DNA of 64,000 bases from an uncultured Enterobacteriaceae bacterium (lineage in GTDB: Bacteria > Pseudomonadota > Gammaproteobacteria > Burkholderiales > SG8-39). This document shows positions 5,293 to 60,029 of this stretch, one piece after another (within the stretch, counting starts at the first letter, position 1; each line of letters starts with the position of its first letter). The DNA lies in NCBI GenBank assembly GCA_964612335.1, contig CAZTDU010000005.1:20729-84728 (forward strand). Direction: 5' to 3'. The notes beneath the pieces were generated by a model that did not search any database, was not told where the DNA came from, and saw nothing but the letters and a program-made list of their open reading frames with translations. A program made the translations under genes and the position numbers.

Positions 5293-6717
5293 GTGATGCC
5301 GCGGATCGTCCCTGTCATCCTCTGCGGCGGCGCCGGCACGCGGCTGTGGCCGATGTCGCGCAAGCTCTTGCCCAAGCAGTTCCTGCCGCTGGTGACCGGG
5401 AAGTCGCTGCTGCAGGACACCGCGCTCAGGCTGCGCGGCCTCGCCGGCGCCGGCGCGCCGGTGGTGGTGGCAAACCACGAGCACCGCTTCCTCGCCGCCG
5501 AGCAGATGCAGGCCATCGGCATGAAGCCGCGCGCGCTGCTGCTGGAACCGGTGGGCCGCAACACCGCGCCTGCCATCGCCGCCGTGGCCGCGCTGGTGGC
5601 GCAGGACGACCCCGACGCGGTGCTGCTGGTGCTGCCGTCCGACCACCGCATCGGCGACCTGCCGGCATTCCGGCGCGCGGTGCGCACGGCGCGCGCCCTG
5701 GCGGCCGAAGGGTTCCTCGCCACCTTCGGCATCGCGCCCGGCGGCCCCGCCACCGGCTACGGCTACATCGAGGCCGGCAAGGCGATCCCGCGGCGCGCGG
5801 GCGCGTACCGCATCCGGCGCTTCGTGGAAAAGCCTGCGTTGCGCACGACGAAGGCCTTCATCGCACGCGGCGGCTTCCTGTGGAACAGCGGCATGTTCGC
5901 CTTCACCGCCGCGCGCTACCTGGAGGAGATCGCGCGCCAGCGCCCCGCCATCGCCAGCGCGGCGAAGCAGTCGCTGCAGCTGGCGACGCGGGACCTCGAT
6001 TTCCTGCGCCTCGACGAAAAATCCTTCAAGGCCTGCCCCGCCGATTCCATCGACTACGCGGTGATGGAACACACCGCGCACGGCGCGGTGGTGCGCGCCG
6101 ACATGCGCTGGAGCGACGTCGGCTCCTGGTCGGCGCTGTGGGAGGTGAGCGAACGCGATGCCGCCGGCAATGCCGCGCGCGGCGACGTCGCGCTGCACGA
6201 CGCGCGCGGCTGCTACGTGCGCGCCGACAGCCGGCACGTGTCGGTGCTGGGCGCCGAGGACCTGGTCGTCGTCGAGACCAGCGACGCGGTGCTGGTGGCG
6301 AAGCGCGCGCGCGCCGAGGAAGTGAAGGACGTGGTCGAGCGGCTGCGGCGCGGCAGGCGCAGCGAACACGAGTCGCACACGCGCGTGTACCGGCCTTGGG
6401 GCTACTACGAATCGGTCGACGCCGGCGCGCGCTTCCAGGTCAAGCGCCTGATGGTGAAGCCGGGGCAGTCGCTGTCGCTGCAGCGGCACAGGAAGCGCGC
6501 CGAGCACTGGGTCGTGGTGTCGGGCACCGCGCGGGTCACGCGTGGCACTCAGCAACTCACGCTGAAGGAGAACCAGTCCACGTTCATCCCGCTGGGCGTG
6601 AAGCACCGCCTCGCGAACCCGGGCAGGAAGCCGCTTTACCTCGTCGAGGTGCAGTCCGGGTCGTACCTGGGGGAGGACGACATCGAGAGGTTCGAGGACC
6701 GCTACAACCGCCGCTAG
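5293..6717 (+). CDS. manC: Bifunctional mannose-1-phosphate guanylyltransferase / mannose-6-phosphate isomerase (type II PMI-GMP)
   Basis: The N-terminus VILCGGAGTRLWPMSRKLLPKQF, the WNSGMFAF motif, and a C-terminal cupin with QRHRKRAEHWVVVSGTARV..FIPLGVKHRLANPG. Confidence 0.92.
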   Translation: MMPRIVPVILCGGAGTRLWPMSRKLLPKQFLPLVTGKSLLQDTALRLRGLAGAGAPVVVANHEHRFLAAEQMQAIGMKPRALLLEPVGRNTAPAIAAVAALVAQDDPDAVLLVLPSDHRIGDLPAFRRAVRTARALAAEGFLATFGIAPGGPATGYGYIEAGKAIPRRAGAYRIRRFVEKPALRTTKAFIARGGFLWNSGMFAFTAARYLEEIARQRPAIASAAKQSLQLATRDLDFLRLDEKSFKACPADSIDYAVMEHTAHGAVVRADMRWSDVGSWSALWEVSERDAAGNAARGDVALHDARGCYVRADSRHVSVLGAEDLVVVETSDAVLVAKRARAEEVKDVVERLRRGRRSEHESHTRVYRPWGYYESVDAGARFQVKRLMVKPGQSLSLQRHRKRAEHWVVVSGTARVTRGTQQLTLKENQSTFIPLGVKHRLANPGRKPLYLVEVQSGSYLGEDDIERFEDRYNRR

Positions 6718-7643
6718 GCAGCCGGCTTTTCCGCGACGCCGATGACCTGCAGGCCGGCGTGGCGCAGGCCCGGCAGGTGCACCGCGACGTGGTCCGCGCG
6801 CGCGGCGAGGCGCGTGATGGCGCGGATGCCGGGCACGAAGCGGAACAGGCGGTTGAACACCAGCACGTCGCTGTTCATGAACAGGCAGAAGCCGACGAAG
6901 CCGCGCGACTTCCAGGTGCGCAGCCGCAGGCCGGCGCGCGCGAGCGGCGGCAGCGTCTCGCGCTCGCGCAGCGGCCGCTCGGTTTCGTGGTCCAGCGCCG
7001 GCGACAGCCGGTAGATCGCGCCGCGCAGCAGGCGCCAGAGCCAGAAGTCGTCCAGCGGCTCGCGAAACCAGAAGCGCCCCCCCGGCTTGAGCACACGCGC
7101 CACCTCGGCGAACAGCCTGGCGCGGTCGTTCACATGGTGGATGCCGCCGAACATCAGCACGCTGTCCAGGCTGGCGCTGGCGATCGGCAGGCGGGTGGCG
7201 TCGCCCTGCACGAACAGGTATTCGGGCAGGTCGGCGCGCGCCGCCTCGAGCATGCGCTCCGAGACGTCCACGCCGATGGCGCAGCGGACCTGCGTGCGCA
7301 GCAGGCGCAGTGCCTCGCCGCGCCCGCAGCAGATCTCCGCGGCGATCCCCAGCGGCGCCGGGCCGATCTCCGCGAGCAGTTCGTCGTCGAGGTACCTCGC
7401 GTACTCCTGGGTGTGCGGATAGCCCAGGTTCTCGATGTAGGCACGCGCGACGCGATCGTAGTGCGCCTGCTGGCGCCGCGCGTCCTCGCCGAGGAAATCC
7501 TCGGCGAACAGCGGGATGCCGGCGGCGGAAACGCGATAGCGATTGCCGCCCGATGCTGCGACCAGCGCGCCATCGCGCTCCGCGAGCGGCTCGCCGGTGC
7601 GCGGGCAGGCCAGCAGCCGCAGGTACTCCGGCGCGATGCTCAT
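6714..7643 (-). CDS. Class I SAM-dependent methyltransferase with Trm112-like N-terminal segment
   Basis: Starts at MSIAPEYLRLLACPRTGEPL (zinc-ribbon-like). Motif I is AAEICCGRGEA, followed by DSVLMFGGIHH and LKPGGRFWF. The ATG overlaps the asnB-like stop (ATGA, 7640-7643). Confidence 0.75.
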   Translation of the reverse strand: MSIAPEYLRLLACPRTGEPLAERDGALVAASGGNRYRVSAAGIPLFAEDFLGEDARRQQAHYDRVARAYIENLGYPHTQEYARYLDDELLAEIGPAPLGIAAEICCGRGEALRLLRTQVRCAIGVDVSERMLEAARADLPEYLFVQGDATRLPIASASLDSVLMFGGIHHVNDRARLFAEVARVLKPGGRFWFREPLDDFWLWRLLRGAIYRLSPALDHETERPLRERETLPPLARAGLRLRTWKSRGFVGFCLFMNSDVLVFNRLFRFVPGIRAITRLAARADHVAVHLPGLRHAGLQVIGVAEKPAA

Positions 7644-58917: not shown

Positions 58918-59502
58918 TTATGCGTTGCGCCGCAATATGAGGTCTGCGGCGGCGGGTAGCGATTCTACCGCAACGTACGGTTTTTCGGGTTGTTTTTCCC
59001 GGTAGCCGCAGTCGATGAAGTAGGCGTGGCAGCCGGCGGCGTGGGCTGCGCCGACGTCGCGCCAGCGGTCGCCGACCAGGCTGCTGCGGGCCAGGTCGAT
59101 GCCGTGATCCGCAGCCGCCTTGAGGAGCATTCCCGCCTTCGGTTTCCGACACGCGCAGGCGTCGGCATCGACGTGGTAGCAGACCTCGATGCCGTCTATG
59201 GCGAGTGCTGTGCCGAGGCGATCGTGCATCGCCTCGACGACCTCGCGACGCTGCTTGCCGGTGGCCACGTCCGGCTGGTTGGTGACGACGATGTTCAGGA
59301 AGCCCGCGGCGCGCAGGCGCAGCAGCGCGTCCGCGACGCCGGGAAGGATCTCGAGTTGTTCCACCGAATCCGGTGGATAAGGCTTGCCGTCGCGGACAAC
59401 AGCCCGGTTTATGACCCCGTCGCGGTCGAGGAAGACCGCGCGCCTGCCTACCACTTGGTGGCGATTTGCTGCAGGGCCGGGTGGGAAACGAGGCAATGCC
59501 AC
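58918..59502 (-). CDS. gmhB: HAD-IIIA sugar bisphosphate phosphatase (GmhB-like)
   Basis: AVFLDRDGVIN (DxD nucleophile), VVTNQPDVA, CRKPKAGML, and VGDRWRDV. The start is either ATG 59502 or GTG 59454, which would overlap the gmhA-like stop by 7 nt. Confidence 0.8.
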   Translation of the reverse strand: MALPRFPPGPAANRHQVVGRRAVFLDRDGVINRAVVRDGKPYPPDSVEQLEILPGVADALLRLRAAGFLNIVVTNQPDVATGKQRREVVEAMHDRLGTALAIDGIEVCYHVDADACACRKPKAGMLLKAAADHGIDLARSSLVGDRWRDVGAAHAAGCHAYFIDCGYREKQPEKPYVAVESLPAAADLILRRNA

Positions 59503-60029
59503 ACCACTGCCTGGAAGGCCTCGGTGTGCGGGGTCACGCGCGACGCGTCCACCGTGGGAATCACGACGACGCAGTCGCCGATCTGCTTCGTGTAGCCGCC
59601 GTCGCGCCCGACCACGCCGTAGATCTTCGTGCCGCGTTCCTTCGCCACCTTGAGCCCGGCGACAATGTTGGCGCTGACATTCTTCTCCAGGTTGCCGCCG
59701 CCCACGGAGAAAACGAACACCGCGTCCTTGTCGTTCGCGCGGCTGGTGCGCAACCAGGCCGCGAACACCGTGTCCCAGCCCTCGTCGTTGGTGCGCGCGG
59801 TGAGTTCAGAGACGTTGTCGGTGGGTGCGTAGGCCTCGATGCCGCACAACTTGCGGAAGTCGTTCACCGCGTGCGTGCAATTGCCCGCACTGCCACCGAC
59901 GCCGAGCAGGAACAGGCGCCCGCCGCGCTCGCGCAGTGCGGCGAGTTCGCCGGCCAGTTTCTCGATCGCCGCGATGTCGATCGACTCGGCAACCTTCACC
60001 ACTTCCTTGAAGTACGTCTGCGTGTGCAT
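59448..60029 (-). CDS. gmhA: SIS-domain sugar-phosphate isomerase (divergent GmhA family)
   Basis: Starts at MHTQTYF. GRLFLLGVGGSAGNCTHAVNDF, VFVFSVGGG, AKERGTKIYGVVGRDGG, and TEAFQAVVWH align by eye with E. coli GmhA blocks, but with substitutions. Confidence 0.8.
   Translation of the reverse strand: MHTQTYFKEVVKVAESIDIAAIEKLAGELAALRERGGRLFLLGVGGSAGNCTHAVNDFRKLCGIEAYAPTDNVSELTARTNDEGWDTVFAAWLRTSRANDKDAVFVFSVGGGNLEKNVSANIVAGLKVAKERGTKIYGVVGRDGGYTKQIGDCVVVIPTVDASRVTPHTEAFQAVVWHCLVSHPALQQIATKW

Follow-up and report, generated by a model that had tools for sequence, protein, structure and literature searches.

A glycan locus with a Wzm/Wzt exporter and few recognisable glycosyltransferases: predicted transferase folds among its unannotated proteins

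How can a gene cluster that encodes an exporter of the Wzm/Wzt type, together with the precursor and tailoring enzymes of an elaborate glycan, contain only two recognisable glycosyltransferases (GTs)? This question is raised by a stretch of DNA from an uncultured Enterobacteriaceae bacterium (contig CAZTDU010000005.1 of assembly GCA_964612335.1), which was scanned over its whole length of 64 kb and is hereafter called the window. The glycan cluster proper occupies positions 6714-60293 of the window and comprises about 50 genes. In our judgement, it is likely that this locus directs the synthesis of a Wzm/Wzt-dependent polysaccharide of the lipopolysaccharide (LPS) O-antigen type, and that most of its chain-building GTs belong to families unseen by current sequence models. 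The candidates are three paralogous proteins, here named VWG450, VWG858 and VWG501, and a 385-aa protein encoded beside Wzm.

The shortage of recognisable glycosyltransferases

The G+C content of the window is about 70%, so that a mechanical list of its open reading frames (ORFs) consists mostly of shadow frames. Genes were called from the G+C content of codon positions (GC3-frame model), using frame plots and weighted interval scheduling. About 61 called genes tile the window, with gaps below 330 nt except for one low-G+C stretch, which was inspected by hand. Pfam was run on every called gene and NCBIfam on selected ones, and the ORFs left unassigned were rescanned with Pfam at E<=5. The GT and exporter genes recognised in the cluster are as follows:

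9472-10419, minus strand: ArnC-like GT2, polyprenyl-phosphate sugar transferase, with two C-terminal transmembrane segments (Pfam Glycos_transf_2, E=1e-30)
20132-20944, minus strand: soluble GT2, the sole canonical cytoplasmic GT of the cluster (Pfam Glycos_transf_2, E=1e-35)
39870-40664, minus strand: Wzt ATPase, 264 aa (Pfam ABC_tran; NCBIfam galactan-export Wzt, E=1e-79)
40674-41483, minus strand: Wzm permease (NCBIfam galactan-export Wzm, E=3e-67)

The two GT2 genes are the only Pfam GT matches in 6714-60293. Pfam found there no Glycos_transf_1/Glyco_transf_4 (GT4), other GT-B or Glyco_transf_9 domain, and no Glycos_transf_4 (WecA), Bac_transf (WbaP), Polysacc_synt (Wzx), Wzy_C or Wzz domain; the unassigned ORFs of the cluster gave no GT family even at E<=5. 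In a hydropathy scan of the cluster, the polytopic proteins were Wzm, two EamA proteins, SxtJ, one SGNH protein with three N-terminal transmembrane segments, the two-segment tail of the ArnC-like enzyme and a 534-aa protein (12423-14027); no Wzx- or Wzy-like protein was seen, unless the 534-aa protein is one. These results bear out a first-pass annotation of the same DNA, which had reported just two GT2 genes and none of GT4/GT-B, WecA/WbaP, Wzx, Wzy or Wzz, and which gave exactly the right coordinates for the 385-aa ORF and both GT2 genes. Canonical GT4, GT2 or GT9 hidden Markov model (HMM) matches in unassigned ORFs, which that annotation had named as counter-evidence, were not found, and the support for GTs among these ORFs is at the level of fold only.

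The enzyme at 9472-10419 had been called ArnC-like, rightly so: it matches ArnC chains in the PDB over their full length (E=1e-60, residues 2-305), as well as GtrB (E=1e-39) and NCBIfam NF007986 (E=2e-63, below cut-off), and its product would thus be a lipid-linked sugar, not a polymer. The soluble enzyme at 20132-20944 matches chondroitin synthase, WrtF and SpsA N-terminal halves in the PDB, and TuaG/EpsE-like models in NCBIfam; by these similarities, it is a candidate adaptor or priming-step transferase.

The exporter, also claimed by the first-pass annotation, is supported by the galactan-export models, for which both scores lie below the equivalog cut-offs. Wzt is without a C-terminal carbohydrate-binding domain, and Wzm is 49% identical to a protein annotated as ABC2_membrane in a related locus (L003). 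A capsule (KpsMT-type) reading of the locus was rejected, since no KpsC, KpsS, KpsD or KpsE domains were found.

WecA and WaaL are normally absent from ABC-dependent O-antigen loci. The lack of WecA/WbaP and of WaaL within the 64-kb window is therefore no anomaly. The missing GTs are a correct observation as far as recognisable domains are concerned. What does not hold is the reading of this conspicuous shortage as one of GT-fold proteins: according to the structure models described below, in which four unannotated proteins have predicted GT folds, the deficit is apparent and not real, being one of annotation. The locus is then not an anomaly in pathway logic, and it points to one, possibly two, unannotated GT families, of which one is large.

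Predicted folds of the VWG proteins and of the protein beside Wzm

The first-pass annotation had suggested that GTs might hide among the unassigned ORFs, namely, the VWG paralogues, the 385-aa protein and the TPR proteins. The first two suggestions are supported by predicted folds (GT-A and GT-B, respectively), whereas the TPR proteins have only TPR or helical matches and were rejected as GTs. The genes concerned are:

20951-21871, minus strand: TPR protein (Pfam TPR_2, TPR_1, TPR_12), in an operon shared with two VWG genes
23121-24473, minus strand: VWG450, 450 aa; GT-A-fold domain, as predicted from the VWG501 model, and FAS1 domain
24489-27065, minus strand: VWG858, 858 aa; predicted GT-A-fold domain, FAS1-like domain and C-terminal S-adenosylmethionine (SAM)-methyltransferase-like domain
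31754-33433, minus strand: TPR559, helical/TPR protein (Pfam TPR_19 only)
33495-35000, plus strand: VWG501, 501 aa; predicted GT-A-fold domain (about 14-330) and FAS1-like domain (about 326-492); the paralogue that was modelled
41480-42637, minus strand: 385-aa protein with a predicted GT-B fold (AlphaFold2 model), nearest in structure to GT9 heptosyltransferases

The three VWG proteins are paralogous across about 450 residues (22-28% identity; E=3e-31 for VWG450 against VWG858, E=2e-15 for VWG450 against VWG501) and have in common an N-terminal domain of about 330 residues, which has no match in Pfam, NCBIfam or PDB sequences (phmmer/hmmsearch). None of the three matches a GT family (PF00535, PF13641, PF01501 and PF14393 among others) at E<=0.01, and VWG501 and VWG858 match none at E<=5. 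They have no transmembrane segments, and VWG450 is also without a signal peptide; the absence of such segments indicates that they are cytoplasmic. The FAS1 domain is recognised in VWG450 by Pfam Fasciclin (PF02469; E=1e-6, 29.1 bits for a cut-off of 22), the match of VWG858 being weak, and the VWG family profile matches the PDB entry 1w7d (E=1e-3). Residues 535-782 of VWG858 are homologous to a 382-aa methyltransferase-like protein encoded at 30609-31757, and NCBIfam gives a weak match to the NanM sugar O-methyltransferase; on these sequence grounds, VWG858 is a candidate polymerase-plus-modifier or terminator module. A literature search on fasciclin-GT fusions found nothing.

The AlphaFold2 model of VWG501, built from 32 sequences, has a predicted local distance difference test score (pLDDT) of 84.6 and a predicted template modelling score (pTM) of 0.83. 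Foldseek matched it to 56 PDB chains at E<=1e-3, with probabilities of 0.99-1.0; among the best 50 of these 56 chains, 46 are GT-A glycosyltransferases and the remaining four are nucleotidyltransferases of the same fold. The matches include BcsA (9e-8), SpsA (5e-5), hyaluronan synthase (HAS), TarP and TarS, and further UGGT, XXYLT1, LARGE1, COLGALT1, WrtF, K4CP and RmlT. The model has the strand-helix order of GT-A, with strand 4 at residues 114-118 and P120-D121 directly after it. D121, the most conserved residue of the VWG family (98% of 174 domain instances), sits where a DxD motif would be expected, with no second acidic residue. Compared with GT2-type GT-A enzymes (SpsA, TarP, BcsA, hyaluronan synthase), the VWG domain has the same predicted fold, strand order and conserved Asp after strand 4; it differs by its Pro-Asp motif instead of DxD, by an N-terminal V-W-G signature instead of the usual motif after strand 1, and by the absence of a Pfam GT2 match at E<=5, with TM-scores below 0.5.

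The family is large, and is covered by neither a Pfam nor an NCBIfam model. A word-indexed search gave 32 close relatives, all hypothetical, and when 1.84 billion cluster representatives (50% identity) were searched exhaustively by HMMER, using the N-terminal domains of all three paralogues, 3,417 of them were retrieved at E<=1e-3 and 2,378 at E<=1e-10. In many members, which are proteins of 1,100-2,200 aa, the domain occurs two or three times. Other domains may be fused to it, for instance, TPR repeats and a GT41 domain next to two VWG copies (P0233), a methyltransferase (P0238) or an N-terminal TPR (P0129). These multi-copy and fused architectures resemble those of multi-module O-antigen/polysaccharide polymerases. 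Four metagenomic proteins (P0133, P0233, P0249 and P0197) are giants of 1,400-2,170 aa with two to three VWG domains, and three of them (P0133, P0249 and P0197) have no Pfam domain whatsoever.

The TPR proteins look like partners or scaffolds of the VWG proteins because VWG relatives are fused to TPR (P0129, P0233, and 823-aa and 816-aa proteins in the related loci L012 and L014). The TPR559 type adjoins a VWG501-type gene in L003, L006, L007, L008, L009 and L010 (tblastn synteny), a homologue of the TPR protein at 20951-21871 adjoins a VWG gene in L008, and TPR genes are annotated beside the VWG501 type in L011-L014.

With regard to conservation, the window proteins were compared by tblastn with VWG501-type genomes and metagenomic loci, together with precomputed Pfam annotation. 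The VWG501 type was found in only six genomes (one genome per species scanned), all from uncultured Alphaproteobacteria (Rhodospirillaceae, Hyphomicrobiaceae and unclassified metagenome-assembled genomes, MAGs), the best relatives being Rhodospirillaceae MAGs; judged by these relatives, the window itself would probably come from an alphaproteobacterium. Two to three VWG genes are present in each of the 11 related loci with about 20 kb of sequence, and a FkbM methyltransferase and a short-chain dehydrogenase/reductase (SDR) epimerase in most related loci. A NUDIX gene, wzt and wzm form a complete set in five loci (L003, L007, L009, L010 and L012); L014 has the NUDIX gene and wzm flanking an unannotated ORF, and in L006 wzt-wzm lies at the locus edge. 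Canonical GTs are scarce here as well: within 10 kb on either side, the six Pfam-annotated loci contain none (L003, L013, L014), one (L011, L012) or two (the contig of P0032). That the shortage recurs together with the VWG genes argues that the VWG proteins, and not unseen genes outside the window, build the chain. In the closest genome, a Rhodospirillaceae MAG, the 10 kb downstream of the VWG501 orthologue (74% identical; L005, 1614-11613) have no tblastn match of at least 60 bits to window proteins, so the cluster content is variable even among close relatives.

The 385-aa protein is the second candidate. Its gene overlaps the wzm stop by 4 nt (translationally coupled), and a homologue also adjoins Wzm in L010; 62 homologues were found, all unannotated. 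It has no match in Pfam (including PF01075, E<=5), NCBIfam, PDB sequences or PDB profiles, and the absence of transmembrane segments indicates a cytoplasmic protein. Its AlphaFold2 model (pLDDT 92, pTM 0.84) has the two-Rossmann GT-B fold, for which Foldseek gave as top matches 3tov (2.5e-7; TM-scores 0.45/0.49), WaaF (1psw, 3e-6; 0.48/0.55), WaaC (2h1h) and TibC (4rb4), followed by other GT-B proteins (TagF, NodZ, FUT1, WaaG and UDP-GlcNAc 2-epimerases). The GT9 enzymes (WaaC, WaaF, TibC, 3tov) are thus its best structural matches, with TM-scores of 0.45-0.55, and the cluster makes a heptose-type nucleotide sugar; the protein differs from them by an additional helical stretch of about 60 aa at its N terminus and by being encoded beside wzm and not in a core operon. 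A predicted heptosyltransferase-like fold beside heptose-type precursor genes is coherent, and a heptose donor may be inferred.

A proposed assembly route and its alternatives

These elements can be arranged in the following route. An initiating enzyme whose gene lies elsewhere would build a primer on undecaprenyl phosphate, and adaptor residues would be added by the soluble GT2 (20132-20944) and/or the GT9-like 385-aa protein, the latter probably using a nucleoside diphosphate (NDP)-heptose-type donor supplied by the genes at 54572-60293. The three VWG proteins, with their predicted GT-A fold, would extend the chain in the cytoplasm, probably as a complex that includes the neighbouring TPR proteins. 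The sugars would be tailored by methyltransferases, the carbamoyltransferase and further enzymes, and a possible role of the methyltransferase domain in VWG858 is to cap the chain. The lipid-linked polymer would be flipped by Wzm/Wzt, identified by homology, without the help of a carbohydrate-binding domain. Its decoration in the periplasm would fall to the five membrane-anchored SGNH proteins together with an Arn-like module, made up of the ArnC homologue, the candidate GT-C and an ArnE-like protein, and ligation to lipid A-core would follow. Because the cluster sits between the waaA/GT9 and rml genes, a lipid A-core-linked product is proposed.

Such a route resembles ABC-dependent O-antigen systems (Klebsiella pneumoniae O2a, O4, O7 and O12, and E. 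coli O9a), with Wzm/Wzt in common, no Wzx, Wzy or Wzz, and the initiating enzyme and ligase encoded elsewhere; cytoplasmic assembly by soluble GT modules is proposed here as there, and methyltransferase domains could cap the chain. In contrast to those systems, the candidate polymerases are without detectable sequence similarity to GT2, GT4, GT8 and GT111 (DUF4422) and carry a FAS1-like domain, TPR proteins stand in the place of coiled-coil rulers, Wzt lacks a carbohydrate-binding domain, its gene is coupled to one of the NUDIX type, and tailoring enzymes are very numerous. There are precedents for GT families overlooked in ABC-dependent O-antigen clusters, since GT137 was an unrecognised family found experimentally in that of Klebsiella O4 (PMC11231755), and GT111, in WbbM, which had been missed by homology searches, likewise came to light by experiment (according to PMC12269835). 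We tentatively propose, as a possibility that falls somewhat short of being likely, that the VWG domain represents a new widespread GT family (GT-A, Pro-Asp, usually FAS1-fused), which together with its TPR partners may polymerise the chains of a separate class of glycans exported by Wzm/Wzt, and that the 385-aa protein may represent a second new family, acting as adaptor or heptosyl transferase.

Several points weigh against the proposed route. The glycosyltransferase role of the VWG proteins is predicted from fold only, as is that of the 385-aa protein, and GT-A is for VWG501 a fold assignment by model and not a close structural match, its Foldseek TM-scores being modest (0.2-0.48: at most 0.32 on the query and 0.48 on the target). 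By hhalign, nothing linked the VWG proteins to the GT2 proteins of the window (probability 0.1), or the 385-aa protein to the window's own GT9 (probability 0.3). The VWG501 matches include nucleotidyltransferases of the same fold (2xmh, 4kt7, 9xur), and no canonical DxD was seen among the 174 instances of the VWG domain, where the second acidic residue is absent. VWG501, the paralogue modelled, departs from the family consensus at three residues (G139S, R148Q, H190N); VWG858, the paralogue nearest the consensus, keeps R148 and H190. FAS1 domains are usually extracytoplasmic, and one in the cytoplasmic VWG proteins is out of the ordinary. The GT-C assignment within the Arn-like module is without support from any model. 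Finally, additional GTs, as well as WecA and WaaL, are possibly encoded outside the 64-kb window.

This last point leads to an alternative that we regard as unlikely, in which the polymerising GTs lie outside the window, and the VWG and 385-aa proteins perform nucleotidyl transfer, sugar-nucleotide modification or scaffolding. The analysis covered the 64-kb window, and such roles would fit the missing DxD, the sugar-nucleotide pyrophosphorylases, of GT-A-like fold, that appear among the VWG501 matches, and the UDP-GlcNAc 2-epimerases (of GT-B fold, not GTs) among those of the 385-aa protein. However, the best structural matches of both models are true transferases, P0233 combines VWG and GT41 domains in one protein, and the left flank within the window contains core-type GTs, not polymerases; furthermore, canonical GTs are likewise scarce over 10 kb on each side of the VWG genes of independent loci. 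Missed or mis-framed GT genes, an artefact of gene calling in DNA of 70% G+C, would be another way to explain the deficit, and the raw ORF list does consist mostly of shadow ORFs, such as a spurious one of about 1,200 aa at 2887-6606. We consider this highly improbable, as the final genes tile the window and were all scanned, and homologues elsewhere were independently called with the same boundaries.

The product might also be a short, heavily tailored oligosaccharide or glycolipid, for which the two GT2 enzymes (with the GT-C candidate) would be enough, which would leave no real deficit. Tailoring enzymes do far outnumber GTs, small glycolipids, for instance Nod factors, are also carried by ABC-2 exporters, the weaker matches of Wzt include NodI, and the carbamoyltransferase and methyltransferases recall Nod-factor tailoring. 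Yet a NodC-like synthase is missing, Wzm and Wzt are best matched by exporters of polysaccharides (galactans), the cluster lies between LPS-core and rml genes, and the four additional proteins of predicted GT fold are conserved with the exporter, which together make a short product quite doubtful. A Wzm/Wzt-dependent O-antigen-type polysaccharide, most of whose chain-building GTs are unannotated, is the reading that we retain.

Should the VWG proteins prove to be transferases, a function could be given to about 3,400 protein clusters now called hypothetical, CAZy would grow by one or two families, and the seeming lack of polymerases in many exporter clusters of Alphaproteobacteria and metagenomes would be explained. 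The combination of GT-A and FAS1 domains with TPR partners would be a new organisation of ABC-dependent polymerases, alongside the coiled-coil rulers of Klebsiella and E. coli, and GT counts based on HMMs would underestimate how far poorly studied lineages are capable of glycosylation. An unusual glycan is likely, one that carries a carbamoyl group and numerous methyl groups and contains a furanose or a sugar of the heptose type.

Arn-like module, precursor and tailoring genes, and flanks

Other genes of the window are the following:

1622-2887, minus strand: WaaA Kdo transferase, GT30 (Pfam Glycos_transf_N, E=5e-66)
2887-3846, minus strand: GT9 heptosyltransferase (Pfam Glyco_transf_9, E=5e-51)
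3883-4659, plus strand: GT2 (Pfam Glycos_transf_2, E=3e-17)
4690-5286: DUF4254 protein, between the core-region GT2 and manC (Pfam, E=9e-52)
5293-6717, plus strand: ManC, GDP-mannose pyrophosphorylase/mannose-6-phosphate isomerase (Pfam NTP_transferase, E=6e-55; MannoseP_isomer, E=8e-52)
12076-12426, minus strand: small EamA protein with four transmembrane segments (Pfam EamA, E=3e-9; NCBIfam ArnE, E=3e-7, below cut-off)
12423-14027, minus strand: 534-aa polytopic membrane protein with about 11 hydrophobic segments and a C-terminal soluble domain of about 165 aa
38105-38530, minus strand: 'sporadic carbohydrate cluster' protein of the LIC12192 family (NCBIfam TIGR04323, E=1e-34, above cut-off)
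38548-39363, minus strand: 'sporadic carbohydrate cluster' 2-oxoglutarate (2OG)-Fe(II) oxygenase (NCBIfam TIGR04324, E=6e-88, above cut-off)
39386-39880, minus strand: NUDIX hydrolase (Pfam NUDIX)
42637-44372, minus strand: split transketolase, C- and N-terminal subunits (Pfam Transket_pyr, Transketolase_C, Transketolase_N), kept in L009
50285-51457, minus strand: divergent Glf-like NDP-sugar pyranose-furanose mutase (Pfam GLF, E=4e-29)
54572-60293, minus strand: heptose-type precursor block, with an HldE-like protein, two SDR dehydratase/epimerases, a transaldolase, a GmhB-like phosphatase and a GmhA-like SIS isomerase (Pfam)
61602-63852: rmlD, rmlC and rmlA, in the right flank of the cluster

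The ArnC-like gene shares one operon with those of the small EamA protein and of the 534-aa protein; a methyltransferase, a B12 radical-SAM enzyme and an AsnB-type amidotransferase are encoded there too. From its sequence matches, the EamA protein is a candidate ArnE/F-like flippase subunit for a lipid-linked sugar. The 534-aa protein belongs to a rare family (26 homologues), in which D47-D48, just after the first transmembrane segment, are invariant. It had been noted as a putative GT-C: its topology, this motif and the Arn-like context make it a candidate periplasmic transferase of this type, whereas no match was obtained in Pfam, NCBIfam or the PDB, by sequence or with a 20-sequence profile, GT-C models included. 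Compared with the Arn pathway and Gtr-type periplasmic glycosylation, the operon likewise combines a full-length ArnC homologue, an ArnE-like EamA protein and a polytopic protein with acidic residues after the first transmembrane segment; it differs in having no match to an ArnT/PMT/GT-C model, no ArnA, ArnB or ArnD, and additional radical-SAM, AsnB-type and methyltransferase genes.

The precursor genes listed by the first-pass annotation are largely found. ManC is present, as is the heptose-like pathway with its SIS/GmhA-like, HAD/GmhB-like and HldE-like kinase-nucleotidyltransferase members; of the rmlBACD set placed just beyond the cluster, rmlD, rmlC and rmlA are there, and rmlB is absent from the window. 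NCBIfam supports the heptose-type block with HldE domain models, GmhB and, weakly, GmhA, and with the transaldolase model TIGR02134, above cut-off. The block is syntenic with L006, which has the entire 47-59 kb precursor region of the window. In the HldE-like protein (54572-56119), the nucleotidyltransferase domain precedes the PfkB kinase domain, the reverse of HldE, and the score is 152 bits for an HldE cut-off of 521. The transaldolase (58159-58893) lies within the glycan cluster and has a homologue in L006; together with the split transketolase, it may provide a dedicated supply of sedoheptulose-7-phosphate or a two-carbon branching step. The Glf-like protein scores 79 bits with the NCBIfam model UDP-GALP_mutase, whose cut-off is 304, and has a 57% identical homologue in L006.

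The figure of roughly 25 tailoring enzymes given earlier is fair by count. There are eight methyltransferases and one fused methyltransferase domain, two radical-SAM enzymes, five SGNH-type proteins, a carbamoyltransferase, an AsnB-type amidotransferase, one confirmed 2OG oxygenase and a weak PhyH-like ORF, and seven sugar-nucleotide redox enzymes. The SGNH/GDSL-type proteins (17792-18979, 21868-23124, 35886-37220, 45109-46425 and 46385-47488) form two paralogue pairs and one singleton, and with one to three N-terminal transmembrane segments each they are probably periplasmic. An MBOAT or Acyl_transf_3 partner for them is absent from the window and present in related loci.

The TIGR04323/TIGR04324 pair lies between an epimerase gene and NUDIX-Wzt-Wzm in the window, L003 and L007, and between Glf and TylF homologues in L006. 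Its members in L003, L006 and L007 are homologous, and similar unannotated ORFs occupy the same position in L012 and L014; a literature search on these 'sporadic carbohydrate cluster' proteins found nothing. The NUDIX gene, of about 160 codons, abuts or overlaps the 3' end of wzt in the window (by 11 nt) and in five related loci (e.g. L003, 995-2334; L012, 594-1933), and its product might hydrolyse a sugar nucleotide or a lipid diphosphate. A tight triad at 28116-30591 encodes an SxtJ-like protein with three transmembrane segments, a 49-aa DUF5989 protein (E=5e-26) and an O-carbamoyltransferase, an arrangement found in saxitoxin clusters (sxtI/J/K) and kept in L009 (13366-15799). The small membrane proteins of the triad may be general partners of carbamoyltransferases.

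On the left, the cluster is flanked by genes for a rhodanese fragment, an outer-membrane efflux protein, WaaA, GT9, GT2, the DUF4254 protein and ManC, and on the right by genes for an EamA transporter and a NUDIX protein and by rmlD, rmlC and rmlA. The WaaA, GT9 and GT2 trio (1622-4659), unmentioned in the first-pass annotation, consists of LPS-core enzymes, not polymerases; with the DUF4254 and ManC genes, it marks the window as the LPS region of a Gram-negative genome. Antisense to the three genuine plus-strand genes of this flank (GT2, DUF4254 and ManC) runs an open frame of 1,239 aa (2887-6606, minus strand), a high-G+C shadow ORF that a length-based caller would misannotate.

Between 14000 and 20000, the G+C content falls to 0.635-0.649 (0.64-0.74 elsewhere), and the codon-position GC3 signal is weaker. 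This stretch contains the PhyH-like ORF, two DUF268 methyltransferase-like genes (one of them TPR-fused), an SGNH protein and a FkbM methyltransferase. The PhyH-like ORF (312 aa, 14043-14981) was rejected as a GT, its only match being a sub-threshold one to PhyH (E=0.07). The whole stretch may be a laterally acquired tailoring island.

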